Positions 5,175-23,527 are shown, numbered from the stretch's first letter. The stretch: 64,000 nt of DNA from Candidatus Latescibacterota bacterium (GCA_964291625.2 OZ220089.1:768001-832000), one strand, 5' to 3'. Notes: generated from the letters alone by a model not told the origin. A program made the numbers and translations.

Positions 5175-6002
5175 TCAGGCCGCCCGGTGGTAGACATCGC
5201 TGGGGGTCTCGTAGTCGAAGGCCTGGTGCGGCCGCTCGAGGTTGTAGAAGCGGAAGTAGGCCGCCACGCCCTCGATCAACTCGGGGACGGTGTCGTAGGC
5301 CTTCAGGTAGATGTCCTCGTACTTCAGGGAGCGCCACAGCCGCTCGATGAAGATGTTGTCCAGCACCCGGCCGCGGCCGTCCATGCTCACCCGCGCCCCG
5401 GCGGCCTCGACCCGCTCGGTGAAGGCGGTGCTGGTGAACTGGGCCCCCTGGTCGGTGTTGAAGATCTCCGGCCGCCCCTGGCTCAGAGCCTCCTCCAAAG
5501 CCTCCAGGCAGAAGGCCGCGTCGAGGGTGTTGGAGACCCGCCAAGCCAGCACGTAGCGGCTGAACCAGTCCATGACCGCCACCAGGTAGACGAAGCCGGA
5601 AGGCATCGGCAGATAGGTGATGTCGCTGCACCACACCTGGTCCGGCCGGTCCACGGTCATCCCTCGCAGCAGATACGGATAGACCCGGTGCTGAGGGTTG
5701 GGAGTGGTCGGTCGCGGGCGAGGATAGATCGCCTGCAGGCCCATGACCTTCATCAGGCGATGCACGCGCTTGAGATTGACCGGGTGCCCCTGCCGCCTCA
5801 GAGCCGCGCAGATCCGGCGCACGCCGTAGACCGGGCGCTTGGTGTAGATCCGGTCGATGACGTTCATCAGGTCGAGGGTGAGCGGGTCTGGCCCCTCCGG
5901 GTGGTAGTAGAAACTGGATCGGGCCAGCCCGAGCAGCTCGCACTGCCGGTGCACGCTCAGCTGGGCGTGGCGCGGCTCGATGAGAGCGCGGCGCTCAGCC
6001 AC
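5175..6002 (-). CDS. IS3 transposase OrfB (rve integrase core)
   Basis: DDE motifs [15 protein letters not shown] and [10 protein letters not shown]; YNxxRPH. Confidence 0.95.
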
Positions 6003-6288
6003 CGACAGCCTCGTGTTTTTTTTGAAGCCACTCCAGCTCCATCTGCAGGCGACCGATCTGCTCGTAGAGCTCGGGCACCGAGGCGGCCTCCTCGTCCGGC
6101 CGCCGGCCCCCGGGGCCCTGGAAGGCCTCGGGCAACCGCTCCAGCAACTGCTTCTTCCAGCCGTGGATCTGGCTGGGGTGGACGGAGAACTTGCGGGCCA
6201 GCTCGTTGACCGTCTGCCGCTCGCGCAGGGCCTCCAGAGCCACCTTGGCCTTAAACTGAGCCGAGTGCGTCTTGCGTTTCCTCGTCAT
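5995..6288 (-). CDS. IS3 transposase OrfA (HTH)
   Basis: [21 protein letters not shown]...[19 protein letters not shown]8 run near the end. Confidence 0.9.
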
Positions 6289-7920
6289 CCAACCCCCTCC
6301 GGACAGTAGCTCGGTGGACGAAAAGTCTCGCTTAGCCACCTGTCCAGGATTTGGGGTACATTACCGGCAACCGCCGCCGCTTCAGCAACACCGGCGGCGT
6401 CAGCATGATCTCCAGCCGCCTCGTGAGCGAGGGGCCCCTGGGCCGGGGCTCGTGGATGGCGGCCGGCCGGCGCACCTACATCGACCCGGCCCTGCGGGCG
6501 CTGCGCCGGAGCGCCGACGGCCTCGACGGCCTCGGCTACTGGTTCTACGACCTCAACGCCAAGATCAACACCCAGCTGACGCCCGACGACAACCTGATGG
6601 TCAGCGCCTACGGGGGCGCCGACCATCTCGACATCACGGTGAGCGACAGCACCAACACCCTCTCCTTCGGCAACGAGTGGGGCAACCGCGCCCTGACCGG
6701 GCGCTGGACGCACCTGTTCACGCCGGCCCTGTTCGGCCGCGCCATCCTCCTCTACTCCCGCTACCACAGCGACATCCTCCTCGACCTCTTCGGCACCCCG
6801 GTCGAGATCCGCAACAAGGTGCGGGAGGTCACCCTCAAGGGGGATGCCGACTGGTTCGCCTCCCCGGACCACACCCTGCGGGCGGGAGTCGACCTCACTC
6901 GCTTCCGCTTCGACTACAAGGTGCGCTTCGAGGAGTACCGGGAGGAGCAGGTCGTGGAGCCGTACCTGCTCTCCGCCTACGTCCAGGAGGACTGGCAGGC
7001 GACGCCCCTGACCGAGGTCCGGCTCGGCCTGCGGGGCTCCTGGTACGAGGAGGGAGGGCGCCTGTCCCTGAACCCGCGCTTCTCCCTGAGCCGGGTCCTG
7101 CGGGAGGGCTGGCGGGTCAAGGTCGCCGGCGGCAGCTACCGGCAGTACCTGCAACTGGTGTCGACGGAGGGGTTCGGTGGCGGCGACGTCTGGGTCTCCC
7201 TCGACGAGACCGTCGAGCCCGGGCGCTCATACCAGGGGGTCACGGGACTGGAGTGGGAGCCTTCCGGCGACTGGCGGGTCAGCCTCGAGTCCTACTACAC
7301 AGACCTGGCCAACCTCGTGGTCCTCGACGAGGACCAGGCCGAGAACGCGGAGCAGCGGACCTCGGAGGACGTCTTCAAGACCGGCGGGGAGGGCTACGCC
7401 ACCGGCCTGGAGCTGTTCGCCGAGAAACGCCGCGGGGCCCTGACCGGCTGGCTGGGCTACACCCTCGGCTGGACGCGGAGGAAGTTCCCGGAGGTCGACG
7501 AGGGCCGCGCCTTCCCGCCCAAGTACGATCGGCGTCACGACCTGTCGCTGACCGCCAGGTACACTGCGGGGCGCTGGACCTGGACGACCAGCCTGGTCTA
7601 CGCCACCGGCCAGGCCTATACCCCGGCCGGGGCCCGCTACACCCTGCGCGACCCGGCGTCGGGCCGCCCCGTGGACCGGCTCCTGGCGGCGCAGCGCAAC
7701 AGCGCCCGGATGCTGCCCTACCACCGCCTCGACGCCGGGGTGCGGCGCCAGGCCCGGCTCTTCGGCGCCGAGGTCGAGTACTACCTGCAGATCTTCAACC
7801 TCTACAACCGCCGCAACGAGTGGTTCATCCAGTACGACCCCGAGGACTCGGAGAAGGAACCGACCGTGGTCCGGATGCTGCCCATCGTGCCGACTTTCGG
7901 CTTCGACTTCAGGCTCTGAG

Positions 7921-8922
7921 ATGATGCCCGCATTCCTGCTGCTGCTGGCCCTCGCGCCGCTCCTGTCCTGTGACGCCCCCGGCCCCCTCAAGGCCGACCG
8001 GGACCCCGGGGAGCTCTTCGGCCCCGGCGAGGAGACGCTGATCGTGGTCGACGCCGTCCTCATCGTCGACGCGCCCCTGCCCCCGGTCCTGGTGCGGCGC
8101 ACCGAGGCGCCCGGGGTTCGCTACGAGGCCGCGGCCACCGGCGTGACCGGGGCCGAGGTTTCCATCCGCCACGGCGACGCCCGGTTCGCGTACCGCCCCG
8201 ACCCGGCCCACGCCGGACGCTACCTGCCGCCCGACGGCGCGCCCCGGGTCGAGCCGGGCGGCGAGTACGAGCTGCGGGTGACCAGCGGCGACGCCCCGGT
8301 CGTGAGGGCCCGGACCCTTACGCCGGCGAGGGTGCGCGTCGAGGAACTGGTCTGGCTCGACGAGGACCTGGAGACGGAACTGCAGCAGCTGAGGCTGTTC
8401 TCCGAGATCGGCGACGGGGTCTACGAAGCCGGCGAGAACCAGCTGGAGTATCCGCGGGGCCTGCTGGTGGCCCTGCTCGAGGGCGCGGGCGAGCCCGGGT
8501 TCTACCAGTTCGCCACGTTCAACCTGGAGAGCTACAGCCCCTACCTGCTCGACCCCGAGTGGATCGACGAGGGGGACTTCGAGCTGGAGCGCCAGAACAC
8601 CTCCCCCCTGCTGCGGGCCGAGGACAGGTACCTCTACCTGCCCTGGGACGGCATCTACCACGCCGGGCGCTACAAGGTCAGGCTCCACGCCGTCGACCGG
8701 AACTGGTACGACCTCGTGCGAACCGACAACATCGACGCGGAACGCGGCGCCGGCGAGGCCGGCCAGTCCTTCCAGCGGCCCCTCTTCCACGTGGAGAACG
8801 GGATCGGCCTCTTCGCCTCGGCCGCGGTCGATTCCTTCGGCTTCTTCGTCCGGCCCAGGGGCAGCCCGCCCTGCTCCGGGTGCCAGTGCTGGGACTGCGC
8901 GGAGGCGCCGCCGGAGGAGTGA
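7921..8922 (+). CDS. DUF4249-like lipoprotein (TonB receptor partner)
   Basis: Lipobox LLSC, IVVDAVL, C-terminal HVENGIGLF. Immediately follows the TBDR. Confidence 0.7.
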   Translation: MMPAFLLLLALAPLLSCDAPGPLKADRDPGELFGPGEETLIVVDAVLIVDAPLPPVLVRRTEAPGVRYEAAATGVTGAEVSIRHGDARFAYRPDPAHAGRYLPPDGAPRVEPGGEYELRVTSGDAPVVRARTLTPARVRVEELVWLDEDLETELQQLRLFSEIGDGVYEAGENQLEYPRGLLVALLEGAGEPGFYQFATFNLESYSPYLLDPEWIDEGDFELERQNTSPLLRAEDRYLYLPWDGIYHAGRYKVRLHAVDRNWYDLVRTDNIDAERGAGEAGQSFQRPLFHVENGIGLFASAAVDSFGFFVRPRGSPPCSGCQCWDCAEAPPEE

Positions 8923-8952
8923 CGGGGGCCTCGAAGGCGGCCCAGACAAGGG

Positions 8953-8987
8953 AAGCTGCCCACCGAGGTGCGACAGATCGCGTCGCA
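8953..8987 (-). promoter_or_regulatory. Putative WYL box/promoter copy 4 (orphan)
   Basis: TGCGAC-agatcgc-GTCGCA at 8969-8987. On the minus strand it reads TGTCGC-N11-CAGCTT. Confidence 0.6.
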
Positions 8988-9144
8988 GGCACGGAAGAGA
9001 AGCGGGGTGACTGGGCTCCGAGCTTGGGGCCGGGCCTCTCGATGTATATTCCGCCGCCAGCCTGGCGGACGGCCCCATCCACCAGCCCCTGGATCCCGGG
9101 GCGGACCGAAGCCCACCAGGCTACCTCTTCCGGAGAGAAGACCG

Positions 9145-12108
9145 ATGAGCAAGCTCCCGTTCCTGCTGCTGATCCTCACCTGCGGGGCCGTCTGGGCCCA
9201 GCCGAAGGGCCACATCGAAGGCACGGTCACCGCCGAGGACGGGGTAATCCTGCCCGGCGCCGGCATCGCCGTGCGGGGACCCGGCCTGCCCGATGGGGCC
9301 GGAAGCGTCTCGGGCGAGGAGGGGCGGTTCCGCATCGCCCTTCCGGCGGGTGCCTACGAGGTGGAGATCACCTTCGTCGGCTACAGGAGCGAGAAGCGGG
9401 AAGCGGTGCGGGTGCGGGCCGGCGAGACGACGCGGATGAACGCGGTCCTGGCGGCGGAGGTTCTCTACCTGGGGCAGGAGGTGGTCACCGCCTCGCGCCG
9501 GCAGGAGAAGATCCTGGACGCGCCGGCCTCGGTCTCCGTGGTCGACGGCGGCGATGTCCGCAACAAGCCGGCCCTGACCGTGGCCGACCACGTCAAGGAC
9601 CTGCCGGCGGTTGACTTCGCCCAGACGGGACTGGCGAACAACATGGTGGTGGTGCGCGGCTTCAACAACATCTTCTCCGGTTCCCTGCTCACCCTGACGG
9701 ACAACCGCATCGCGCGGGTGCCCTCGCTGCGGGTGAACGCCATGAACTTCATCCCCCTGGTCAACGAGGACGTGGAGCGGATCGAGGTCGTCCTGGGGCC
9801 GGGGTCGGCCCTGTACGGACCCAACAGCGCCGACGGGGTCATGCACGTCATCACCCGCTCCCCCCTGACCTCGCAGGGCACCAACGTCTACCTGGGGCTG
9901 GGCGAGCGCGATCTGCGCAAGACCGAGATGCGCCACGCCGGCATGGTGGGGGACGGCCTGGGCTACAAGATCTCGGCCCGGTACTACACGGGCACCGAGT
10001 GGGAGTACACCGATGCGGAGGAGGAGAAGGCGCGGCAGCAGAGGCTGGCGGAGATCGCCGCCGGCGCCGACCTGCCGCCCCTGCCGGAGCGCGACCCCCA
10101 CACCCGCAACCAGAGCCTCGAGGCGCGTCTGGACTGGCGGGCCTCCGACGACCTGACGGCGATCCTGTCGGCGGGGCACAACAAGGCGAGCATCCTCGGC
10201 CTCACCGGCGTGGGCGCGTCGCAGACGATCGACTGGCAGTACAACTACACCCAGCTGCGCCTGCTTCACGGCGACTGGTTCTTCCAGGCCTTCCGCAACT
10301 GGAGCGATGCGGGCGACAGCTTCCTGCTGCGCACGGGGGTGCCCGTCGTCGACCGGTCCTCCCTGACCGTGCTCCAGGGGCAGCACACCTCCACCCTGGG
10401 CGCGCGCCAGCGCTTCACCTACGGCGTCGACGCCCTGCTGACGCGGCCCGACACGGAGGGCACCATCATGGGCCGCAACGAGGACGACGACGACCTCGAC
10501 GTCCTCGGCGGCTACCTGCAGAGCGAGACCGCCCTCGCCGGTCCCCTGGAGCTGGTGCTGGCCCTGCGTTACGACTACCACAGCCGGCTGGCCGACCCCG
10601 AGCTGTCGCCCCGGGCCGCCCTGGTCTACAAGCCGAGGGAAGCCCAGACCCTGCGGCTGACCTACAACCGCGCCTTCAGCACGCCCACGGCGAACAACCT
10701 CTACCTCGACCTGCAGACCTCCCGCGATCCCTTCGGTCTGGCGCCGGCCTTCTCGCCCCTCTTCGCGTCCCTCGGCCTGGGGGAGTTCCGGCCCATCGAC
10801 GTCTGGACCCAGGGCAACTACCGGGGCGGCGAGTACGGCTTCACCTTCCGCCGGGGCGAGAACGGCCGGCCCCTGTTCCGCTCGCCCTTCGCGCCGATGG
10901 CCGGTCGGACGGCCGACCAGTACCTGCCCCTGGACGATCCGCTGTTCACCAACGTCATGTGGGGGATCGGCCGGCAGTCGGTGCTCGCCCGGCTCGGCCC
11001 GGTCTTCCAGCAACTGGCCGCCGGCGCCATGATGGCCCAGGGCCTGGGAGCCGAGGAGGCCCAGGCGGCGGCCGGTCAGCTGGCGGCGGACCTGCCCGGC
11101 ATCGTGCCCGAGCAGCTGCCCGGCCTGCGCAACCGGCTGGGACGTCTGAACATCGAGACCGAGCCTCTCGGCGAGGAGCCCGACCCGAACCGCCAGTCCT
11201 TCTTCTTCGTGGAGGCCGACGGCGTCACGCCGGTCACCGCCCACGACGTGCCGCGCATCGAGTCGGCCATCACCCAGACCTTCGAGATCGGCTACAAGGG
11301 GGTGCTGGCCGACAGGGTGGTGGTCGCCGCGGACCTGTATCAGTCCCGGGTCGAGAACTACGTCGGCTCCGTGTCGGTGGAGACCCCCAACGTCTTCCTC
11401 GATCCGGCGAGCCTGGGCCAGGCCCTCGGCGAAGGCATCGGCCAGGCCCTCGCCGATCCGGAGAACGCCGAGCTGGCCGCGGTCCTGGCGGCCCTCGACG
11501 CGGCGCAGGTACCGGGGTTGGTGCAGGGCAACAACAACGGCACCTCCGTGGACGAGCTGGCCGGCCTCCTCACGGCGGGGGCGGCGGCGATCCCCTACGG
11601 CACCGTCTCCCCCGAGCAGGCCTCCGATCCCTACGCCCTGGTCATGAGCTACCGCAACTTCAAGGCCGTCACCATTCGCGGCCTCGACCTGGGCCTGGGC
11701 TGGTACCCCACCGACCGGTTGCGGCTCACGGGGAGCTACTCATACGTCGACGACAACTGGTTCGAGAACGTGAGCTACTCCCATGGCGATGGGGGCGCCG
11801 ACATCGCCCTCAACGCCCCCCGGCACAAGAGCAAGCTGGGCCTGGACTACGACTTCGCCGACCTGGGGCTGACGGTGGGAGGCCGAGTTCGCTACACCGA
11901 TTCCTTTCCCATGAGCTCGGGCGTGTACGCGGGCGTGGTGGACACCTACACGGTGCTGGACCTCAACCTGAGCTACGAGCTGCCGTTACAGCAGGACCTG
12001 GTGCTGCAGGTCGATGCGAGCAACGTGCTGGACCGGCCTTATCAGTCCTTCGTCGGCGCCCCGGAGGTGGGGCGGCTGGTCTTCGGCCAGGTGGGGCTGC
12101 GGTTCTGA
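9145..12108 (+). CDS. TonB-dependent receptor
   Basis: Signal peptide MSKLPFLLL, VVTASR..., IERIEVVLGPGSALYG-like plug motif, C-terminal VGLRF. Long insertion in the barrel. Confidence 0.93.
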   Translation: MSKLPFLLLILTCGAVWAQPKGHIEGTVTAEDGVILPGAGIAVRGPGLPDGAGSVSGEEGRFRIALPAGAYEVEITFVGYRSEKREAVRVRAGETTRMNAVLAAEVLYLGQEVVTASRRQEKILDAPASVSVVDGGDVRNKPALTVADHVKDLPAVDFAQTGLANNMVVVRGFNNIFSGSLLTLTDNRIARVPSLRVNAMNFIPLVNEDVERIEVVLGPGSALYGPNSADGVMHVITRSPLTSQGTNVYLGLGERDLRKTEMRHAGMVGDGLGYKISARYYTGTEWEYTDAEEEKARQQRLAEIAAGADLPPLPERDPHTRNQSLEARLDWRASDDLTAILSAGHNKASILGLTGVGASQTIDWQYNYTQLRLLHGDWFFQAFRNWSDAGDSFLLRTGVPVVDRSSLTVLQGQHTSTLGARQRFTYGVDALLTRPDTEGTIMGRNEDDDDLDVLGGYLQSETALAGPLELVLALRYDYHSRLADPELSPRAALVYKPREAQTLRLTYNRAFSTPTANNLYLDLQTSRDPFGLAPAFSPLFASLGLGEFRPIDVWTQGNYRGGEYGFTFRRGENGRPLFRSPFAPMAGRTADQYLPLDDPLFTNVMWGIGRQSVLARLGPVFQQLAAGAMMAQGLGAEEAQAAAGQLAADLPGIVPEQLPGLRNRLGRLNIETEPLGEEPDPNRQSFFFVEADGVTPVTAHDVPRIESAITQTFEIGYKGVLADRVVVAADLYQSRVENYVGSVSVETPNVFLDPASLGQALGEGIGQALADPENAELAAVLAALDAAQVPGLVQGNNNGTSVDELAGLLTAGAAAIPYGTVSPEQASDPYALVMSYRNFKAVTIRGLDLGLGWYPTDRLRLTGSYSYVDDNWFENVSYSHGDGGADIALNAPRHKSKLGLDYDFADLGLTVGGRVRYTDSFPMSSGVYAGVVDTYTVLDLNLSYELPLQQDLVLQVDASNVLDRPYQSFVGAPEVGRLVFGQVGLRF

Positions 12109-12118
12109 GGAGGGCGGG

Positions 12119-12583
12119 CTACTGGCCCTTCTCCTCTCTCCTCGTCGCCATGTGCCTGGTGACGAATTCACAGAAGCTCTTCGCCATTTCGTTGTCCACC
12201 TGCTCGAAGAATACGGTGTAGCCCTCCGCGACAAAGAACACCTTGCCCATCACAAAACCCGTGTTGTACCGAACAGAGGAGATTGCCTCATAGGGGAAGT
12301 CTTGAACGGTGAGCCCATACAACATCCCCTTGTCGACGAAGAGAAGTCGGCTGTCCGTCGCCAACAGCAGGCCATTTCCTCCGCTCTCTCGCTTCGCGTA
12401 GATCGCATGCCGGATGACCTCACCCTCACCGAGAATGTGGGGTAGTTCCTTGATTTCGGAACGGCCCCAATGGCCCTTGAATTCAGATCCGTCAAGGCCG
12501 TGAATGCCGAAGTCGGACGGCGGGCGTTTGGCAGCGCAGGAGAAAGCCACGCATGCGGCCATGGCAGTCAGGACGATCCTCAT
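12119..12583 (-). CDS. Lipoprotein with bacterial PH domain (bPH_3-like)
   Basis: Lipobox-like AFSC; GLLLATDSRLLFVDKGMLYGLTVQDFPYEAISSV. Confidence 0.75.
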   Translation of the reverse strand: MRIVLTAMAACVAFSCAAKRPPSDFGIHGLDGSEFKGHWGRSEIKELPHILGEGEVIRHAIYAKRESGGNGLLLATDSRLLFVDKGMLYGLTVQDFPYEAISSVRYNTGFVMGKVFFVAEGYTVFFEQVDNEMAKSFCEFVTRHMATRREEKGQ

Positions 12584-12678
12584 CTTGGATGCTCCTCGAG
12601 AGATGGGCGGGAGACGGTCTCTTCCCTCCGCCCGGTGGATGGGGTGGTAGAGCGCGCGCCAACGGCGCGTTTAGATGG

Positions 12679-12712
12679 AATCTGTTCAGGAGGTGCGACA
12701 GATCGTGTCGCA
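12679..12712 (-). promoter_or_regulatory. Putative WYL box/promoter copy 3
   Basis: TGCGAC-agatcgt-GTCGCA at 12694-12712. Minus strand TGTCGC-N10-CAGATT, upstream of the PH lipoprotein. Confidence 0.7.
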
Positions 12713-12762
12713 ACCGCGGAAGGGACACCGCGCGAATGGGGTTCCGCGCTTCGGGCCGGCCC

Positions 12763-13254
12763 TCACCCCGCCACCAGGACCGCCAGATCGACCACCATCC
12801 CCTCCAGGAAGGATGCCAGCGCTACCGTCAGCAGATCCCCGTTGCGGTCCTGGATCAGGAGCGCGCCCTCGGCGACGGCGAGGATCGGCGTCTCCAGCTC
12901 CTGCGCTTCGGGCACGATCGACACCGCCGAGACCAGGAGATAGTCGAGGGGCATGTACAGGGAGAGGTCGGACTCCTGATCGGTGGCTTTCAAGTAGAGA
13001 GCCCGGAAGCTCGTCGGGGTGATCCGGTCATCCTCGATGAGGATGTAGCCGTCCTCATCGTAGAGAGAGGCGGTCAGCCGCCGCTCGATGACGGTCCCTT
13101 CTTCGGGCGGACCCATCTCGCCCTGAGGGCCGGCTTCTCCCTGGGGCCCGGTCTCCCCCTGAGGACCCGCCGGCCCCATCGGTCCCTCCGGACCCTGGCA
13201 GGCGAGAAGGACGAGGACGGATAGCACGAACATCGAGTGAAGTCTGCTGCGCAT
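12763..13254 (-). CDS. Lipoprotein with short collagen-like Gly-X-Y repeat
   Basis: LLAC lipobox, then GPEGPMGPAGPQGETGPQGEAGPQGEMGPP. SD AAGGAGG precedes ATG 13254. Confidence 0.85.
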   Translation of the reverse strand: MRSRLHSMFVLSVLVLLACQGPEGPMGPAGPQGETGPQGEAGPQGEMGPPEEGTVIERRLTASLYDEDGYILIEDDRITPTSFRALYLKATDQESDLSLYMPLDYLLVSAVSIVPEAQELETPILAVAEGALLIQDRNGDLLTVALASFLEGMVVDLAVLVAG

Positions 13255-13285
13255 GGACACCTCCTTGATTGGGGTTCAGGAGGTG

Positions 13286-13319
13286 AACCTGCGCAGGAGG
13301 TGCGACAGATCGCGTCGCA
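13286..13319 (-). promoter_or_regulatory. Putative WYL box/promoter copy 2
   Basis: TGCGAC-agatcgc-GTCGCA at 13301-13319. Minus strand TGTCGC-N10-CAGGTT. Confidence 0.7.
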
Positions 13320-13415
13320 GGTCAGCTGCCTTCTTCACTCGGCCAGAACGAGAATCGGCCGGCCCAATGGAGACTTGGACCAGCCGACTCTGGGCGCAGC
13401 CTTGTCAGGCGCGGA

Positions 13416-14207
13416 TCACTCTCTCAGCTTGCTCTCGAGCGTCTCCAGCCAGCGATACCCGTACGCCGGGACCTCGGCTGACGAGGTCGCGCCGTCGGGG
13501 AACATGGGGAACCTCTCGACGCGAAGGCGGTAGTCGTAGTCGTGCAAGGGCTGGAAGCCCACGATCTCGCCGCGGAAGGGGGCGCCGTTGACGACCTTGC
13601 AGTACCCGGGATGGCCGTCGCCGCACTCGACCCTGTGCCGATCCACGGTGATCTCCTCTTCCGTGCCCGACGCTTCGCTCCGGGAGGTGATTTCGCTCAG
13701 CACGTAGCGGCCGTCGGCATACCTGCTCGCCTCGAGGATGTAGTGGTTGCCGGCCTCGTACTCGAAGTTGGTGATCATGTCGTCGTACGGGGCCCCGTCC
13801 ACCACCATGCAGAAGTCGTCGCTCCGGAAGCAGATCACCCGCGCCGGTCCCACCGACAAGGTGGCGGGCGTGGATGGCGCGGGGGTCTTCTCCAGCAACT
13901 CCAGCAGGCGGTAGGCGTACTGGCCGGCGTCCTGGGGCGGTTCGCCGCCGCCCCAGGGATCGTACTTGCCGATCCGCAGCCGATAGTCGTAGCCGGGCTC
14001 GTACTCGAAGCCCTCGATGCCGTCGTAGAAGAGCCCGCCGTCCACGACCATGCACGACTGCAGGCCCACGCCGTAGCACTTGGCCAGGGTGGGGCCGACG
14101 GTCACCTCCCGTGTCTCGAGGTACTCGCCGTCCGGGTCGGTGGAACGGTCGCAGCCGGCCACGAGCAGGGCCGGCAGGAGGAGAGGGGTGATGTATCTGG
14201 CGGGCAT
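13416..14207 (-). CDS. Lipoprotein with three tandem DUF4377-like domains
   Basis: LVAGC lipobox. Three repeats of V-x-P/R..C..C-MVV..IEGFEYEPGYDYRLRI-like motif. Confidence 0.8.
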   Translation of the reverse strand: MPARYITPLLLPALLVAGCDRSTDPDGEYLETREVTVGPTLAKCYGVGLQSCMVVDGGLFYDGIEGFEYEPGYDYRLRIGKYDPWGGGEPPQDAGQYAYRLLELLEKTPAPSTPATLSVGPARVICFRSDDFCMVVDGAPYDDMITNFEYEAGNHYILEASRYADGRYVLSEITSRSEASGTEEEITVDRHRVECGDGHPGYCKVVNGAPFRGEIVGFQPLHDYDYRLRVERFPMFPDGATSSAEVPAYGYRWLETLESKLRE

Positions 14208-14329
14208 GGTGTCCTCCTCGTCGCGGTGCTGCGGCCGCCATCCTGGATCCCGCGGGGATCGCGGCAGGCGCCGGCGGTCCGTCTTCGAATATACCCATGA
14301 GCGGGTTCAAGGGTTCCGGAATCCGATCT

Positions 14330-14684
14330 TGCCTCGGTGACCCGGCTTGGCCTCGCACTCGCCGCGCAGCAGTCCGGCGAGGGCCTCCGGGTCCTGCAGG
14401 TGGCCCAGGATCTCCGCGCGGCCCTCGGAAGCAGGTCCTTCCAGGCTCGGCCATTGCGGATCTCGCCCGGCATCTCGGTCTGGATATGGATGATCCAATA
14501 GCCGATCGCGGCGGACATGCAGTCCGGGATGGCGCGTGAAGGCCGTCCGGTGAGGGCGAGATTGATGGCCACGAGCGAGCAGGCGGGCTCCTCGGGGCCC
14601 CCTCCGCTTGAGAGCTCATGGGTCGCCAGGAAGGTAGGTTCCGAGTCGGTGATCCGCCTCCGCGCTCCAGGTTGAGGTGCTCAT
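14330..14684 (-). pseudogene. Frameshifted hypothetical gene (resembles a phage-type hypothetical family)
   Basis: SD GGAGGAGG then ATG 14684 (MSTSTWSAEADHRLGTYL). Continues in another frame as ACSLVAINLALTG..IPDCMSAAIGYWIIHIQTEMPGEIRNGRAWKDLLPRAA. The family call is from recollection only. Confidence 0.5.
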
Positions 14685-14724
14685 GCGTCCGTGTGATCCT
14701 CCTCCGAGTGCGTCGCCTGAGCAA

Positions 14725-14758
14725 AGAGTAGCGGGGACCCGCGGCAGATCACGTCGCA
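14725..14758 (-). promoter_or_regulatory. Putative WYL box/promoter copy 1, overlapping the stop of the WYL remnant
   Basis: Minus strand TGCGAC-gtgatc-TGCCGC-N10-TACTCT. Confidence 0.65.
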
Positions 14759-14970
14759 CCCTCCCCATCCAACCCCAGGGCCGCCCGCATCTCCTCCCGG
14801 ACCGCCTCGCGCAGCTCTTCCGGCTCCAGCACCTCGGCGGGGGCTCCGAAGCCCAGGACCCAGCTCTTGATCTCGAAGAACCCGCCAGCCCGCAGGCGCA
14901 GGACCACGCGCCCGTCGGCAACTCCTCCAACTGCCGGCTGGGGGCAAGCGCTCCCGCACGCGGGGCACCC
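14745..14970 (-). pseudogene. Duplicated, decayed 3' end of the WYL gene
   Basis: Near-identical to 15399-15628 (e.g. cagctcttccggctccagcacctcggcgg...ccgaagcccaggacccagctcttgatctcgaagaaccc), with indels. Confidence 0.9.
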
Positions 14971-15027
14971 GCGGGATCACGTGCGGGCCGGGCGCATGGC
15001 CGATGCGGCGGCGGGCCTCGTCGACGT

Positions 15028-15078
15028 AGGTTTGAGGACGGAGACGTGGTTGAGGTCGATTACACAGACTATCACTGA
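15028..15078 (+). pseudogene. higB: HigB (RelE-family) toxin C-terminal remnant
   Basis: RFEDGDVVEVDYTDYH* matches the HigB C-terminus, 12 bp upstream of higA. The rest of the gene is missing. Confidence 0.75.
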
Positions 15079-15090
15079 GGAGGCGAGCAA

Positions 15091-15384
15091 ATGGGTATGC
15101 ACAACCCTCCCCATCCGGGTGAGATCGTTCGGTACGAGTGCCTGGAACCGCTGGGATTGACGGTCACGCGTGCGGCGCAAGGGCTGGGTGTGACCCGTCA
15201 GGCGTTGTCGGACCTGGTGAACGGGAAAGCTGGAGTATCGGTGGAGATGTCCATTCGCCTGTCCCAGGCGTTCGGCTCCACACCGGAGACCTGGCTCGGG
15301 ATGCAGATGGCCTTTGACCTTTGGCAAGCCCAGGACCGAGCAAAGCAAATCGAGGTTGAGGACTTCAAGGCTGCCGCCAGGTAG
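15091..15384 (+). CDS. higA: HigA-family addiction module antitoxin
   Basis: MHNPPHPGEI..LEPLGLTVTRAAQGLGVTRQALSDLVNGKAGVSVEMSIRLSQAFGSTPETWLGMQ. Confidence 0.93.
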   Translation: MGMHNPPHPGEIVRYECLEPLGLTVTRAAQGLGVTRQALSDLVNGKAGVSVEMSIRLSQAFGSTPETWLGMQMAFDLWQAQDRAKQIEVEDFKAAAR

Positions 15385-15402
15385 TGGTGGGCAGCTACCA
15401 GA

Positions 15403-16380
15403 TCACGTCGCACCCTCCTCCCCCAACCCCAGGGCCGCCCGCATCTCCCCCCGGACCGCCTCGCCCAGCTCTTCCGGCTCCAGCACCTCGGCGGCGGCTC
15501 CGAAGCCCAGGACCCAGCTCTTGATCTCGAAGAACCCTCCGGCCCGCAGGCGCAGGACCACCCGCCCGTCGGACAGCTCCTCCAACTGCTGGCTGGGGTG
15601 CCAGATGCGCTCGCGCACGTAGGGCGCCTGGTCCGCGGTGAAGCGGACCGCCACGTCCATGGGCTCCTCGTAGGAGACCCCGAAGGCGTTGCGCACGCGC
15701 TCGTCGATGGGCAGATGCTCCGGAGGCTCGAACTCCTCCTCCGTCACCTCCACCCTCTCGAAGCGCTCGACGGCCTGGGTGATGAGATTGTCGTACCGGG
15801 GAACCCGGGAAATCACGTACAGGCCGCCGCGGTAGGGCAGGAAGCGCAGGGGCTCGATCTCGTACTGCGACGCCCTCGCCGCCCTCGGCGAGCGGTAGCT
15901 CACCCGGCAGACGCGGCGCCGCAGAATGGCCCGGTCGAGATTCTCCAGGGTTTCGCGGGCCTCCTCGTACGGCTTGTGGCCCCTCGCCAGAGGTACGTAG
16001 GCATCGGCGGCCCTCTCGAGGAACTGGCGCATCTCGGGCGACATGGCCCCGGTCAGGCGGCGGACCGCCGACCGCAGATGCTCTCCGAAGGGCGTGCCCT
16101 CCAGCCCAAGGCCTGCCCGCTCGGCGAAGATCATGGCCGCCACCTCGAGGACCGGAAAGTTCAGAGGCAGACCGGTTTCCTTGTCCAGCTTGTAGTAGAC
16201 GCGCTGGTCGCGGCGTTCTTCGCCGATCAGGAAACCGGCCTCGCGCAGGTCTCCCAGGTCGCGCTGAACCGTCCGTACCGTGACGCCGGGATCCTGCGCA
16301 AGCTCGTGCACCGTCTTGCCGTAGCGCGCGGCCTGCAGTTCCCGCAGCATGTCCAGCTGTCGTACGAGCTGTTTGCTCAC
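15403..16380 (-). CDS. HTH-WYL-WCX transcriptional regulator (PafC/DriD/YafY-like)
   Basis: wHTH ELAQDPGVTVRTVQRDL; WYL core VSYRS..IEPLRFLPYRGGLYV; WCX RERIWHPSQ..WVLGFGAAAEVLEPEEL. Confidence 0.93.
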   Translation of the reverse strand: MSKQLVRQLDMLRELQAARYGKTVHELAQDPGVTVRTVQRDLGDLREAGFLIGEERRDQRVYYKLDKETGLPLNFPVLEVAAMIFAERAGLGLEGTPFGEHLRSAVRRLTGAMSPEMRQFLERAADAYVPLARGHKPYEEARETLENLDRAILRRRVCRVSYRSPRAARASQYEIEPLRFLPYRGGLYVISRVPRYDNLITQAVERFERVEVTEEEFEPPEHLPIDERVRNAFGVSYEEPMDVAVRFTADQAPYVRERIWHPSQQLEELSDGRVVLRLRAGGFFEIKSWVLGFGAAAEVLEPEELGEAVRGEMRAALGLGEEGAT

Positions 16381-16390
16381 GGCGATCTCC

Positions 16391-18775
16391 TCACCTCAGC
16401 AGCAGCATGCGCCGGTGCACCGCCCACTCGCGGGTCTCGAGCCGGTAGACGTAGACGCCGCTGCCCGCTTCCCGGCCGTACTCGTCCCGGCCGTCCCAGG
16501 ACAGGCGGTGCTCGCCGGCCCCGGGGGCGTGGACCTGCAACTCCCGCACCACCTGGCCCGACAGGTTGTAGATGCGCAGGCGCATGGCCTCGCCCGCCAG
16601 GTTCACCGGCACCTGGAGGGGGATCACCGTGGAGGCGTTGAAGGGGTTGGGCGCGTTCTGCTGCAACACCGGGCGGGCGGGGCCCGCTCCCGGGCGAATC
16701 TCCCAGGCTTCCTCCGCTACGACCACCACCATGGCCTGCCCCAGCTGGGCGAAGACGGCCAGTATTTCGGGCTGACCTGCCAAGCCTTCGTAGAGCCGCC
16801 TCGGCATCTCCGGGCGGTAGGCCCGGTCGATCCATATGTCGTCCCGCAGCACGAAATCGCGCCCCATCCAGTGGGCGGTCTCGCCCGTCTCCTCCACCGA
16901 CGTGGCCATCAGCCCGTCGTCGTCCTCGCCATCCTCGCCGTCATCGGCGCCCTCGCTGTCCGGGAAGTCATCAGTGCGTGTGGGGGCGCTTGCGAGCCCA
17001 TCGCCGCCACCCCCGTCCCGCGGCTCGGGGTTGACCTCCACGCCCTCGTCCGGGGCGAACAGGGAGGTCCGCCGCGTCACCAGGCGGTAGTCCAGCCCCA
17101 GGGCCAGGATGTCGTCGAGCAGCTCCTGCTCGGGGCCGAAGCGGGCGATCTGCTCCTCCAGGGCCAGCACCTTCTGGTAGGCCCACAACCGGGGCAACAA
17201 CTCCAGCGACACATCGGTATCCGTGAACTCCAGCGGGTAGTCCACCAGGACGTCCGCCTCCCCCACCTGGCCGCTCACGCTCAGGGTGTAGAGCCCGCCC
17301 TGCTGGTAGCGGCCCACCTGGAACAGCTCCCGGCCCGCGGCCAGGGCCTCCACGCCCCGCGGGTGCACGTCGTGGATCTCCGCCGTGCCGAAGGACAGCT
17401 CGTCCACCAGCAGCACCGGGAAGGTGAAGTCCTCGAACAGCTCGCGAAGGGCCGCCTCGATGTCTCCCTCCTCCGACAGGAAGTGGGACTCGCCGCCGTG
17501 CTCCTCGGCCAGCACGGTCAGGAAGTTCTGGTCCACGTCGCGGCCCACGCCGATGGTGAACAGGCGCGCCCGGCCCTCCGACCACTTGCCCACCAAGTCG
17601 CTCAACGGCCCCAGCTCGATCTCGCCGATATTCGGCAGGCCGTCGGTGAGGAAGATCACGTGGTTCACCCGGCCGGCGGGGAAGGCCTGCTGCATCGCTC
17701 TTCCGAGACCCGCCTCGAAGTTGCTCACCCCCAACGCGTCCTGCTGGTTGATGAAGGCCGCCGCCGACTCCAGGTTCGACCGGTTGGCCGGCACCGGCGC
17801 CGCGGCGAAGGCATCCGCCCGGTGGCTGAAGACGACGATGTTGAACAGGTCCTTCTCCACCAGATTCTCCAGCGCCGCCACCAGCGCCCCCTTCACCGCC
17901 TCCAGCTTGCCCCGCTGCATGCTCGACGAGATGTCGATCACGAAGGTCAGGCTCCGGGGCAGGGGATCGGCCGCGGTCAGCTCCGGCACGGGCGGCAGCC
18001 ACAGGGCGTAGTAGCCCAGGGCCTCGTCCTCCTCCGGCGCGAAGCTGAGCACCGTCGGCAGCTCCAGATCTCCGGTCCGCTGCAGGCTGAGGGTGAAGTC
18101 CTCCCGCGGCGTCAGGTCCTCGTCGCCGTAGAACACGTTCGCCGTGTGCGCGTCGGGACGGCCCACCTCGGTGAGCCGCGGCAGGCCCGAGGTGGTCGCC
18201 TCGAAGACGTGCTGGCTGCGCACGTGGGCGCGCAGCACGAACAGCTCCATCTGCAGCGCCTGGTCGGTCTCCGGCGCCAGCGGGAAGGTGTAGTCGATGC
18301 GGCCGTTGCGCGCGTCGAGCAGCTGCATGTACTCGAACTCCACCCGCCGGCTGCCCTGGGCCGGGAAGGGGAAGATGCTCAGCCGGAACGAGTTCGGCGT
18401 CACCTGCTCGATCAGGGCCGGATCGATGCGCTGGCGCACGATGTCGTCGTAGACCCGCCGCGCCTCCTCCTTCTCCATGATCAGCCCCTGGATCCGCTTG
18501 TCGCCGATCCACAGCACCAGGTCGGTGATGATGGCGCCCTCGGGCAGGGTGAACTCGTAGATCCCCTCCACCTCCCACTCGGCGTGGTTGGTGAAGATCT
18601 GGTCCGTGCGCGTGCGCGCCACCCGCTCGTCGATGCGCACCTCCACGGTGACCGACGTCAGTTCCAGGTGCTGGCGCCCGTCGTCGCCGACGCCGGTGTA
18701 CACGTAGCCGATGCCGAGGGCGGGCAAGGGGGTCAGCAGCAGGGCGGCGGTGAGAAGGATGTGTCGAGAGTTCAT
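16391..18775 (-). CDS. Secreted VIT-VWA domain protein with FlgD Ig/T9SS-like C-terminal tail
   Basis: Signal peptide. VIT motif DQIFTN..EGIYEFTLPEGA; MIDAS DISSSM and FLTDG; tail QNAPNPFNAST..WDGRDEYGREAGSGVYVYRL. Confidence 0.9.
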   Translation of the reverse strand: MNSRHILLTAALLLTPLPALGIGYVYTGVGDDGRQHLELTSVTVEVRIDERVARTRTDQIFTNHAEWEVEGIYEFTLPEGAIITDLVLWIGDKRIQGLIMEKEEARRVYDDIVRQRIDPALIEQVTPNSFRLSIFPFPAQGSRRVEFEYMQLLDARNGRIDYTFPLAPETDQALQMELFVLRAHVRSQHVFEATTSGLPRLTEVGRPDAHTANVFYGDEDLTPREDFTLSLQRTGDLELPTVLSFAPEEDEALGYYALWLPPVPELTAADPLPRSLTFVIDISSSMQRGKLEAVKGALVAALENLVEKDLFNIVVFSHRADAFAAAPVPANRSNLESAAAFINQQDALGVSNFEAGLGRAMQQAFPAGRVNHVIFLTDGLPNIGEIELGPLSDLVGKWSEGRARLFTIGVGRDVDQNFLTVLAEEHGGESHFLSEEGDIEAALRELFEDFTFPVLLVDELSFGTAEIHDVHPRGVEALAAGRELFQVGRYQQGGLYTLSVSGQVGEADVLVDYPLEFTDTDVSLELLPRLWAYQKVLALEEQIARFGPEQELLDDILALGLDYRLVTRRTSLFAPDEGVEVNPEPRDGGGGDGLASAPTRTDDFPDSEGADDGEDGEDDDGLMATSVEETGETAHWMGRDFVLRDDIWIDRAYRPEMPRRLYEGLAGQPEILAVFAQLGQAMVVVVAEEAWEIRPGAGPARPVLQQNAPNPFNASTVIPLQVPVNLAGEAMRLRIYNLSGQVVRELQVHAPGAGEHRLSWDGRDEYGREAGSGVYVYRLETREWAVHRRMLLLR

Positions 18776-18815
18776 GGCCGGCTCCTTTCGAAGGAGGGGG
18801 ATGGCAGAGGTTCGA

Positions 18816-20798
18816 TCAGTAGGTGACTATGACACCCCGTGCTCTCAGGGCGGGAATGTGTTCGTTGATGGCCTGATCACTGAGGGGGTTGCCTCCCAAA
18901 CGTACTGTATCGCCTTCACCCAGGCCGGTGTTGGCGACCAGGGAACTGATGTCCTGGATCTGGTTGCGACCCAGCCACAGCCTTTCCAAGTTCGCCAAGG
19001 CGGCCAGAGGGCTCACATCGACGATCTCGTTGCTGCTCAGGTACAGCGTTCTCAGGCTGGTCAAGGAGGCCAAGGGGCTCACATCGACGATCTCGTTGTA
19101 GCCCAGAGATAGCCATGCCAAGCTGGTCAAGGCCGCCAGTGGACTCACATCGACGATCTCACTGCTGCTCAACTCCAGCTCTCTCAGGTTGGTCAAGGCG
19201 ACCAGAGCACTCATATCGACGATCTCGTTGCCACCCAGAAACAGACGCTCCAAGTTGGTCAAGGCGACCAGTGGACTCACATCGACGATCTCATTGCTGC
19301 GCAGAGACAGATTTGCCAAGTTGGTCAAGGCGACCAGTGGACTCACATCGACGATCTCGTTGCCACCCAGAGACAGCCGCTCCAAGTTGGTCAAGGTGGC
19401 CAGTGGACTCACATCGACGATCCTATTGCTGCGGAGCTCCAGCGATTTCAAGCTGGCCAAGGCCGCCAGAGGACTCACATCGACGATCTCGTTGAAACTC
19501 AGGAACAGCACTCTCAGGTTGGTCAAGGCGGCCAGAGGGCCCACATCGACGATCTCGTTGTCATGCAGCCCCAAATCTTCGAGTTGGGTCAAGGCGCCGA
19601 GAGGGCTCACATCGACGATCTCGATCGCGTCCAGCCACAGCCCTTCCAAGTCAGCCAGGGTGGCCAGAGGGCTCACATCGACGATCTCGTTGTAACTCAG
19701 GTCCAGCTCTCTCAGGTTGGTCAAGGCGGCCAGAGGGCTCACATCCACGATCTCGTTCTCGTCCAGCCACAGCCCCTCCAAGTTGGTCAGGGTGGCCAGA
19801 GGGCTCACATCGACGATCTCGTTGTAACTCAGGTCCAGCTCTCTCAGGTTGGTCAGGGCGGCCAGAGGGCTCACATCGACGATCTCGTTGAAGTCCAGAC
19901 ACAACTCCTCCAAGCTGGTCAAGGCCGCCAGAGGACTCACGTCGACGATCCCCCAGCCTGGGAGCTGCAACACTCCCAAGCCGACGGCTTCCGCCAGGGT
20001 AACAGGACCCTCCGGCCGCCCCAATGCCCCCAAGACCCACTCTTCCAACTCAGATCCTTGGACCAGGTTGAAAGAAGGGATGAGCACCATCGAGTCTTCG
20101 AGCAGAGCAAGGTCTCTGTCGAATGTGTGTGGAGTGACCTGTACGAAGGAGGCAATCTCCTCTCCCACTGAGCTCCGGTTTCCCAGGTACTCGACCAGCC
20201 TGTCTGCAGGGGCAGGGTGATCCAGGTCAACTGCCAGGGTGATGCTGCTGTCGATCTGTACCGCCACTCGCCCCGTGCGGCCCTGCCAGCGCTCCTGCAG
20301 GAAGGCTGTCACCGCCTCCCAGCCGATGAGGTCGGGGCCTTTCTCCAGCACCGCCAGCTCTGCCGCGCCCGGGTCGATCCGCCAGTCGATGGCGGCCAGG
20401 CCCGCCGGCAGGTCGGCGGGCTCACCGGGCCTCAGCGAGAGGCGCGGGCTACCACCCCCCGGGCGCGTCCACACCAGTGTCTCCTGCCGCAGACTGGACG
20501 GATCGACGCAGTGAAGGGCCACCAGGCTGTCGGGCCAGCCCTCGTATGCCACCTGGATGCCAGAGAGCGCCTGCTCGGCTTCATCCGCCAGGTCCACCCA
20601 CAGGCCGCGGGGGAACTCCGGAGACTCGATCATCACCCGGCCGGCGGCATCGCTCACCGCTTGCGCCCGGCCGGTGCTGTCGGTGCCGGCGGCGAAGGGG
20701 AACTCAGTCTGTGCCGCTGCCGTGGTGGCGGCCAGGACCAGGAGGACTCCGGCTCGAAGCAGGGACGGCGGTGGACCGGTCAGGGCGATTCGGGCCAT
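18816..20798 (-). CDS. Secreted internalin-like leucine-rich repeat protein (copy 1)
   Basis: Signal peptide, about 270-aa N-domain, roughly 15 22-aa repeats of type LxxLxLxxNEIVDVSPLAAL, cap LGGNPLS..IPALRARGV. Confidence 0.92.
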   Translation of the reverse strand: MARIALTGPPPSLLRAGVLLVLAATTAAAQTEFPFAAGTDSTGRAQAVSDAAGRVMIESPEFPRGLWVDLADEAEQALSGIQVAYEGWPDSLVALHCVDPSSLRQETLVWTRPGGGSPRLSLRPGEPADLPAGLAAIDWRIDPGAAELAVLEKGPDLIGWEAVTAFLQERWQGRTGRVAVQIDSSITLAVDLDHPAPADRLVEYLGNRSSVGEEIASFVQVTPHTFDRDLALLEDSMVLIPSFNLVQGSELEEWVLGALGRPEGPVTLAEAVGLGVLQLPGWGIVDVSPLAALTSLEELCLDFNEIVDVSPLAALTNLRELDLSYNEIVDVSPLATLTNLEGLWLDENEIVDVSPLAALTNLRELDLSYNEIVDVSPLATLADLEGLWLDAIEIVDVSPLGALTQLEDLGLHDNEIVDVGPLAALTNLRVLFLSFNEIVDVSPLAALASLKSLELRSNRIVDVSPLATLTNLERLSLGGNEIVDVSPLVALTNLANLSLRSNEIVDVSPLVALTNLERLFLGGNEIVDMSALVALTNLRELELSSSEIVDVSPLAALTSLAWLSLGYNEIVDVSPLASLTSLRTLYLSSNEIVDVSPLAALANLERLWLGRNQIQDISSLVANTGLGEGDTVRLGGNPLSDQAINEHIPALRARGVIVTY

Positions 20799-23188: not shown

Positions 23189-23527
23189 GGAGCCGGCCTC
23201 TCGTGGGAAGGGTGCTGTCCTCGATGGGCGGACGTCGAACCCATCCTGCAAGCGGGAATTCTCTGCCCTGCCAGTGTTGAGCGAGGGGACGCGCCCTGTC
23301 GGCCGCCGCCGAGGCGCCTGACAGCACCCCTCCCCAAGTCGGGCAAGCTACACATTCCTTGAGATGGCAGAAAGGGAAAACCAGACACTGGCGGGAAACC
23401 TGCCGGATATCCAGTGACGGGCAATCGATACGGGTTTGTCGTATCCGTGCCGGACACTGCGTCCAATGTCGGCAATACGGAATCACCGTACGACGGACGT
23501 GCAGGTCCCTTGGGGCGGTTGCGGAGG

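Follow-up and report, generated by a model that had tools for sequence, protein, structure and literature searches.

The closest described relatives of the system reported here are transcription factors with a WYL domain. In Caulobacter crescentus, the homodimeric activator DriD uses Arg37 and Arg41 to read the guanines of CGxC-N7-GxCG (PMC10853764); its sites extend over the -35 position of promoters that have no -35 element, with a constant distance to the -10 element (PMC13004042), and its regulon includes didA, bapE, recJ and dnaG. A site in the own promoter is found for 68 of 69 alpha-proteobacterial DriD homologues (PMC10853764). DdaA, a WYL activator of the Acinetobacter DNA-damage response that was modelled as a homodimer, reads CGAC-N7-GTCG (PMC13010146) and has recA, ssb, uvrA and the aciT gene in its regulon. 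Mycobacterial PafBC consists of two WYL chains (heterodimer or fusion) that use a single half-site in promoters of the type tGTCgg(N10)tA(N3)T, where a -26 element takes the place of the -35 element (PMC8635444). SiwR of Mycobacterium smegmatis, a homodimeric WYL activator, controls DinB-like genes from a 19-bp imperfect palindrome between -35 and -10 of the adjacent operon (PMC10693628), and the WYL proteins CapW and BrxR are repressors of defence systems. Here we describe a 64,000-nt stretch of DNA from a Candidatus Latescibacterota bacterium (GCA_964291625.2 OZ220089.1:768001-832000; the whole stretch is called the window below), in which the gene of a 325-aa WYL protein is accompanied by copies of the palindrome TGCGAC-N7-GTCGCA.

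Of the systems above, DriD is the one that the WYL protein resembles most. Both have the order winged helix-turn-helix (wHTH), three-helix bundle, WYL and WCX, and among proteins of solved structure DriD comes closest in both sequence and fold. The pair of recognition-helix arginines, spaced by four residues, is kept, the operator core CGAC-N7-GTCG (CGxC-N7-GxCG) is the same, and, as far as sequence geometry tells, the promoters again lack a -35 element and have the operator over the -35 position, with a fixed spacing to the -10 element. The differences are that identity is only ~22%, that the operator is located at the 3' end of the regulator gene rather than in its own promoter, that the spacer is a fixed RYGATCT and not AT-rich, that the arginines with which DriD contacts single-stranded DNA (ssDNA) are not conserved in the alignment, and that lipoprotein and AAA ATPase genes are found in place of the DriD regulon. 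DdaA and SiwR can be compared by description only: the former has the same core sequence and the latter the combination of a homodimeric WYL activator with a palindrome, and both control other sets of genes. PafBC, the second-best match in fold, shares the promoter pattern TGTCGC-N10-YAnnnT, but there is one gene and a full palindrome here instead of two chains and a half-site, and PafBC is without the three-helix bundle according to PMC10853764. CapW and BrxR have the wHTH-WYL-WCX build, palindromic operators and a location near defence-like genes in common with the present protein, but they repress, they match its fold far more weakly, and the promoters described here carry no -35 element. 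We consider it likely that the WYL protein is a transcription factor of the DriD/DdaA type, probably an activator, which acts on TGCGAC-RYGATCT-GTCGCA promoters.

The WYL protein and a rare palindrome

The start codon of the WYL gene lies 8 nt after the stop of an upstream VIT-vWA gene. Pfam recognizes HTH_11, WYL and WCX in its product, and a search of solved structures returned DriD chains as the only sequence relatives at E <= 0.001, with 6e-12 over residues 5-316. An AlphaFold2 model made from 34 homologues (mean pLDDT 76) predicts a winged HTH, helices at residues 77-93, 97-111 and 115-132, a WYL sheet and a WCX domain. When this model was submitted to Foldseek, DriD came first at 3e-18 (its chains occupying ranks 1-7), followed by PafBC at 3e-14 and BrxR/CapW at ~1e-5; TM-scores were low because the domains are oriented differently. 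In a preliminary description of the locus, its promoters had been likened to those of DriD and PafBC; kinship of the protein to DriD is borne out by the sequence match, by the modelled three-helix bundle and by the Foldseek rank.

Within the recognition helix, DriD Arg37 and Arg41 align with Arg36 and Arg40 of the WYL protein (RRTAER in DriD, VRTVQR here). All 34 homologues have Thr37, Arg40 and Asp41, and Arg36 and Gln39 are at least 90% conserved. The same homologues invariably carry Y162 and Y188, the equivalents of Tyr168 and Tyr192, which belong to the residues with which DriD contacts ssDNA. The locus has one WYL gene; a second stretch of WYL sequence close by is a partial copy of it, from the 3' end.

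Three exact copies of TGCGAC-N7-GTCGCA are present in the window (G+C ~69%), against 0.02 expected, and none of 100 shuffles reached three. All three share the plus-strand spacer AGATCRY, which is also that of a fourth copy with two mismatches (the 14740 site), while the remaining five two-mismatch matches in the window have unrelated spacers. In addition, a half copy, consisting of one arm and the spacer, overlaps the TGA stop codon of the WYL gene (15403-15405). These findings, obtained by pattern scan, reproduce the inventory of the preliminary description as far as the 64 kb are concerned; what the latter had missed is a further exact copy ~800 kb away (G000:C1:1580442), outside the window and called the distal site below. 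The whole 5.9-Mb assembly contains four exact copies and one with two mismatches, and the reversed control pattern gave none.

On a weight-matrix scan of the genome, the five sites scored between 20 and 51 and the next best position 9.3; since the matrix was derived from related sites that had been found with the pattern itself, this gap mainly shows the absence of further near-copies. With five copies in the genome and a gap of this size, the palindrome is not a dispersed repeat. A repetitive extragenic palindromic (REP)-like sequence, which had been named beforehand as a finding that would refute the proposal, and a miniature inverted-repeat transposable element (MITE), of either of which many gene-independent, dispersed copies would be expected, are ruled out both by the copy number and by the fact that presence of the motif follows that of the WYL orthologue.

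Promoter geometry and the tie to the WYL gene

To compare sites among relatives, 168 genomes of the phylum were scanned for the motif with at most one mismatch. We also compiled 90 distinct sites with at most two mismatches from 36 stretches of DNA (35 from relatives and the first 30 kb of the window); many of these sites are orthologous and the genomes are related. Most sites stand in local arrays of two to seven. Open reading frames (ORFs) in the relatives were called by a simple method based on ORFs and third-position GC (GC3), which is crude.

On the minus strand of this genome, the palindrome is followed after 9 nt by CAGGTT, CAGATT, TACGTT (distal site) or TACTCT (degenerate 14740 site), and at the 8969 copy a -10-like hexamer is one base out of register. 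The continuations TGTCGC-N10-CAGGTT/CAGATT/TACTCT and N11-CAGCTT are as previously stated. In 75 of the 90 compiled sites, the hexamer separated from GTCGCA by 9 nt has A as its second and T as its sixth base, whereas the same test in eight registers shifted by 1 to 4 nt was passed by 0 to 23; the commonest hexamers were TAAGTT, TAAATT, TAATAT, TAGGTT and CAGGTT. As the hexamer columns are not part of the search pattern, they speak independently for a -10 element at a fixed distance. Placing this element at -12 to -7 makes the palindrome span about -40 to -22. We see nothing in the consensus that resembles a -35 hexamer at a spacing of 16-18 nt, and when 8500-16800 was scanned with consensus elements, no site with both a -35 and a -10 element was returned. 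A Shine-Dalgarno-like sequence together with an ORF of at least 50 aa follows within 300 nt in 71 of the 90 (median distance from the palindrome, 57 nt), and an A/T-rich tract (about TAAAAAATTTC) directly precedes the palindrome in 46, being absent in this genus. Throughout the set there is hardly any variation in the 7-nt spacer RYGATCT, with its internal GATC, and modules of ~55 bp recur nearly identically in front of unrelated genes.

Judged by its sequence context, the palindrome is a real cis-element and the putative operator of promoters without a -35 element. Transcription starts predicted near 13279, 12672 and 14718 on the minus strand in the preliminary description agree with the positions of the candidate -10 elements, and the proposed DriD/PafBC-like placement, at a fixed distance to a -10 hexamer and without a -35 element, holds. 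The additional proposal of a hybrid promoter is given up. The didA promoter oligonucleotide listed in the Methods of PMC13004042 contains GTCGCA, 9 nt and CAATCT; if CAATCT is the didA -10 element, which is our reading and not an assignment by its authors, the arrangement would be ordinary DriD geometry. RNA contigs aligned to 7500-19000, from one metatranscriptome and three other runs on mixed communities (90-99% likeness), give no transcript ends, strand or level, and gaps in their coverage carry no meaning.

The motif was found in 29 of the 168 genomes: in 28 of the 76 of the own family, this genome included, in one of 31 of a sister family and in none of the 61 others (one hit for the reversed control). 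When the 76 family genomes were searched with the protein query at E <= 1e-40, motif and WYL orthologue were both present in 25 and both absent in 46, with five discordant genomes, a count that is no clean statistic because the genomes are kin. Of the discordant genomes, three have sites and no orthologue (G007, G153 and G163), and two have an orthologue and no site (G004, a fragment at a contig end, and G029, at 48% identity). Presence and absence of motif and gene vary together inside several genera. The co-occurrence for which the preliminary description had looked to the relatives is thus seen in them.

The physical overlap of gene and operator is a stronger link than this table. Among 22 close orthologues (at least 70% identity), 18, from 17 genomes, have a full palindrome that includes the stop codon of the gene: the 3' end reads GGT GCG ACR TGA, where one operator arm is coding and the stop falls within the spacer. 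This genome, G027, G155 and G156 are the four exceptions. Upstream of the gene the pattern is largely missing; CGNC-N7-GNCG does not occur within 300 nt upstream of the WYL gene here, nor in 30 of 36 homologues, and only one of the other six has matching CGAC and GTCG arms.

The arrangement extends to the sister families, where 10 of 14 homologues (44-48% identity) are followed, 5-6 nt after the stop, by a diverged and imperfect operator, YRCGAC-N7-GTCATA or, in one genome, TACGAC-N7-GTCGTA, and after a further 9 nt by TAnnTT. Hence, the operator sequence changes with the protein clade and the layout is kept. These operators were read directly in the DNA 3' of each stop codon; a screen for palindromes with at most one mismatch was dropped, as it yields ~0.5 chance matches per 7 kb by a rough estimate and misses imperfect sites.

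At the sister-family loci L067:3999-4085, L068:3975-4060 and L069-L076, a strong intrinsic-terminator hairpin (-18.6 kcal/mol, z -6.0) begins 1-2 nt after the predicted -10 element. A start ~7 nt past that element would fall inside the 5' arm of the hairpin, such that read-through from the WYL gene would terminate whereas transcripts from the WYL-dependent promoter would escape.

Some genomes show departures from the common pattern. The collagen-like gene of G007 (L039 7127-7363), which has sites and no WYL orthologue, is broken, and in G153 (L062) the ORF behind a site begins, as judged by eye, with a few N-terminal residues typical of the secreted-protein family and then turns into a DnaB-like stretch; both fit decay of targets after loss of the regulator. 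The sister-family genome G054 has, in addition to its own 45% homologue, a 77%-identical orthologue with f1-type sites (L037 9370-10356) in a region of low third-position GC, which suggests that regulator and promoters were transferred horizontally together.

Mode of action and alternative explanations

The WYL protein most likely binds TGCGAC-RYGATCT-GTCGCA as a homodimer, for which the palindrome, the presence of a single gene and the WCX domain argue. In its active state, the bound dimer would make up for the absent -35 contact and bring RNA polymerase to the promoter, as was shown for DriD and PafBC. Given its place in the DriD class, a homodimeric activator is the best reading of the protein, and, by analogy, ssDNA may be the signal to which it responds.

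Several observations weigh against this proposal. DriD residues Arg176, Arg178, Lys202, Arg204, Trp206 and Arg207, which contact ssDNA (PMC9186387), are without like residues in our hand-read alignment; two other arginines, R192 and R206, are invariant and located nearby. The spacer is near-invariant, and yet the central part of the DriD site is contacted by its protein at few points. It may be read, methylated or inherited with copied promoter modules, and common descent of such modules is one possible reason for its constancy. G007, G153 and G163 carry sites with no orthologue to this query, kinship among the genomes makes the co-occurrence counts overstate independence, as does the orthology of many of the 90 sites, and the gene calls in the relatives depend on the crude ORF/GC3 caller. 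Finally, an operator at -40 to -22 could equally well block RNA polymerase, and WYL repressors exist in CapW and BrxR.

The last point leads to the alternative that survives best, in which the same protein at the same sites is a CapW/BrxR-like repressor that stays seated until a signal releases it; we regard this as rather unlikely. A protein in this position would clash with polymerase contacts, and the A-rich tract (46/90) and the good -10 element (75/90) might confer activity without a regulator, but no -35 element is present at 16-18-nt spacing or detected by scan, and the geometry equals that of the activators PafBC and, on our reading of the printed didA oligonucleotide, DriD. Islands of the relatives hold defence-like genes (a PD-(D/E)XK nuclease matching PDC-S26 models, and AAA ATPases with weak matches to IetA), and ssDNA-sensing WYL repressors are known (PMC11662680). 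The predicted fold, in turn, is 8-13 orders of magnitude closer to DriD/PafBC than to BrxR/CapW and includes the three-helix bundle, which PMC10853764 assigns to homodimeric activators. Because of the missing -35 element, the geometry and the closer kinship to activators, we clearly favour activation over repression by the WYL protein.

That the motif belongs to another regulator and co-travels with the WYL gene in one mobile island is very improbable. Such an island would agree with the variability of the islands and their lower third-position GC in several genera, with the 77%-identical orthologue in another family, which suggests transfer, and with the three genomes that have sites and no gene. 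It is at odds with the palindrome arm inside the WYL coding sequence in 18/22 genes, with a recognition helix that keeps the DriD arginine pair for the same core, and with an operator sequence that changes together with the protein clade; moreover, no other DNA-binding gene recurs in the island gene listings, in which higA-like ORFs appear only here and in G027. Least credible of all is that, instead of promoters, the palindromes mark sites of recombination or the borders of cassettes, or make up a small mobile repeat: same-orientation sites do flank short genes, ~55-bp modules are nearly identical before unrelated genes and an apparent IS3-family element is located at 5175-6339, but there are only five copies in the genome, neither the strict -10 register nor the ribosome-binding sites (RBS) and start codons downstream would be expected, and the island gene listings, which were not searched systematically for this purpose, show no integrase beside the arrays.

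Predicted targets, layout of the locus and implications

The sequence of this genome predicts three working promoters of the WYL-dependent type, in front of genes for a collagen-like lipoprotein, a bPH_3 lipoprotein and, at the distal site, a Cdc48-like tandem-AAA ATPase; two more promoters appear decayed. The size of the ATPase, ~690 aa, is taken from the full-length relative in G006, which has two AAA domains and is closest to ATPases of the Cdc48/VCP type. In relatives, the collagen-like lipoprotein is the commonest gene behind the motif. The same type of promoter there also precedes the tandem-AAA ATPase, several unnamed small proteins, and a target with a ClpP-like N-terminus (by eye) that is followed by a winged-helix plus AAA ATPase (PF22977, PF00004). 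A PD-(D/E)XK nuclease (PDDEXK_4) is encoded within arrays, with no site seen directly before its gene. Accessory DnaB genes stand behind the motif in G160 (L047, two in the island), G140 (L064), G025 (L042) and G019 (L034), beside a higher-scoring housekeeping dnaB, which is the only copy in this genome.

Sister-family loci have a homologue of the ATPase gene behind the operator; the conserved core is therefore the WYL gene, the operator and the AAA ATPase gene. To go by their promoters, the lipoproteins are real targets of the system and not its whole regulon. The preliminary description had correctly pointed to the collagen-like and PH-domain lipoproteins, whereas the "decayed hypothetical gene" that it named as a third target is a relic of the ATPase (79% identity by tblastn). 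Its view of a regulon of lipoproteins instead of DNA-related or defence genes is not upheld, as the fourth exact site would drive the tandem-AAA ATPase and relatives add DnaB, the ClpP-like gene and the nuclease. An assignment of the ATPases as defence proteins was considered and rejected: PADLOC and NCBIfam models match the generic AAA core only (IetA/IteA, 79 bits against a cut-off of 510).

Table 1. Features of the WYL locus, numbered from the first nucleotide of the window.
Feature	Position	Strand	Properties
WYL regulator gene, 325 aa	15403..16380	minus	wHTH, three-helix bundle, WYL, WCX
Half operator (one arm and spacer) over WYL stop	15394..15412	minus	promoter-proximal arm lost to higA insertion
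higB remnant and intact higA (HTH_3, 15091-15384)	14971..15384	plus	Pfam HTH_3; remnant by frame translation
WYL 3'-end duplicate (fragment)	14745..14970	minus	90.9% DNA identity over 230 nt to 15399-15628
Degenerate operator, 2 mismatches in promoter-proximal arm; -10-like TACTCT 14730-14725	14740..14758	minus	putative displaced original WYL-promoter junction
Tandem-AAA ATPase relic, last 34 codons	14319..14420	minus	tblastn 79% identity to C-terminus of G006 ATPase, E 4e-13
DUF4377 lipoprotein gene, 263 aa	13416..14207	minus	PF14302, E 2.3e-21
Operator, no mismatch; -10 CAGGTT 13291-13286; predicted start ~13279	13301..13319	minus	predicted collagen-like lipoprotein promoter
Collagen-like lipoprotein gene, likely start ATG 13254	12763..13260	minus	signal peptide ends in lipobox LLAC
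Operator, no mismatch; -10 CAGATT 12684-12679; predicted start ~12672	12694..12712	minus	predicted bPH_3 lipoprotein promoter
bPH_3 (bacterial PH-domain) lipoprotein gene, 154 aa	12119..12583	minus	PF14470, E 2.3e-15
Orphan operator, no mismatch	8969..8987	minus	faces 3' end of plus-strand DUF4249 gene

The features of the locus are collected in Table 1. At the 13301 site, an RBS and an ATG follow 46 nt after the palindrome, and orthologous promoters are present in relatives. The collagen-like lipoprotein itself has a weak Pfam Collagen match below the cut-off, retrieved only collagen-repeat clusters with scores <0.9 in a protein atlas search, and has a C-terminal domain without a name. The ATG behind the 12694 site is 110 nt downstream, an arrangement also found in G002. 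The 8969 copy has no gene left downstream; its orthologue in G002 and G007 drives the gene of a 150-aa lipoprotein, which this genome lacks.

The higB remnant and higA are flanked by two copies of the WYL 3' end (14745-14970 and 15399-15628), the fragment being 85% identical in protein sequence to WYL residues 267-325. The ancestral order would have been WYL gene, operator/promoter and ATPase gene. Insertion of higA split the operator at the WYL stop, leaving one arm and the spacer with the intact gene, and the displaced junction at 14740 later lost two bases of the other arm. Past this degenerate promoter, the DUF4377 gene is the first intact one, its start being 240 nt from the site in G002; the ATPase relic is also present in G002 and G007.

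Further away, two overlapping minus-strand ORFs at 5175-6339 resemble, from their translations and by eye, the two frames of an IS3-family element. Two large tandem paralogous genes with leucine-rich repeats (660 and 823 aa) occupy 18816-23251, upstream of the VIT-vWA and WYL genes, and this neighbourhood of leucine-rich-repeat, VIT-vWA and WYL genes is shared with G002, G006 and G007.

Tentatively, we propose that regulator and first operator form one unit, that the regulon grows by copying of promoter modules, and that its output is a response concerned with the envelope and with protein unfolding and degradation. The unity of the two follows from the last WYL codons being an operator arm, and any gene landing downstream would come under WYL control. 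Growth would proceed by copying of the ~55-bp module of A-rich tract, operator and -10 element, which fits the near-invariant spacer and flanks before unrelated genes. Where DriD, DdaA and PafBC control DNA repair, this regulon would then rely on the Cdc48-like ATPase, the collagen-like lipoprotein and the ClpP-like gene along with its AAA partner, and it could be set off by a signal in the form of nucleic acid, as from attacking phage or damaged DNA.

In this sponge-associated bacterium, the WYL protein and its palindromes are a well-defined cis-regulatory system, which belongs to the DriD/DdaA class and is unusual both in the layout of its genes and in its targets. A literature search found no paper with both "WYL domain" and "Gemmatimonad"; a DriD/DdaA-type activator with the same operator core and geometry would reach from Proteobacteria to Gemmatimonadota. 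Its regulon can be predicted from sequence with very little noise, there being five sites in one genome. The Cdc48-like ATPase stays paired with the regulator across families and, together with the collagen-like lipoprotein, points to an undescribed output of WYL signalling, while the fusion of the operator to the stop codon of its regulator presents one way in which a regulator and its first promoter can stay linked.

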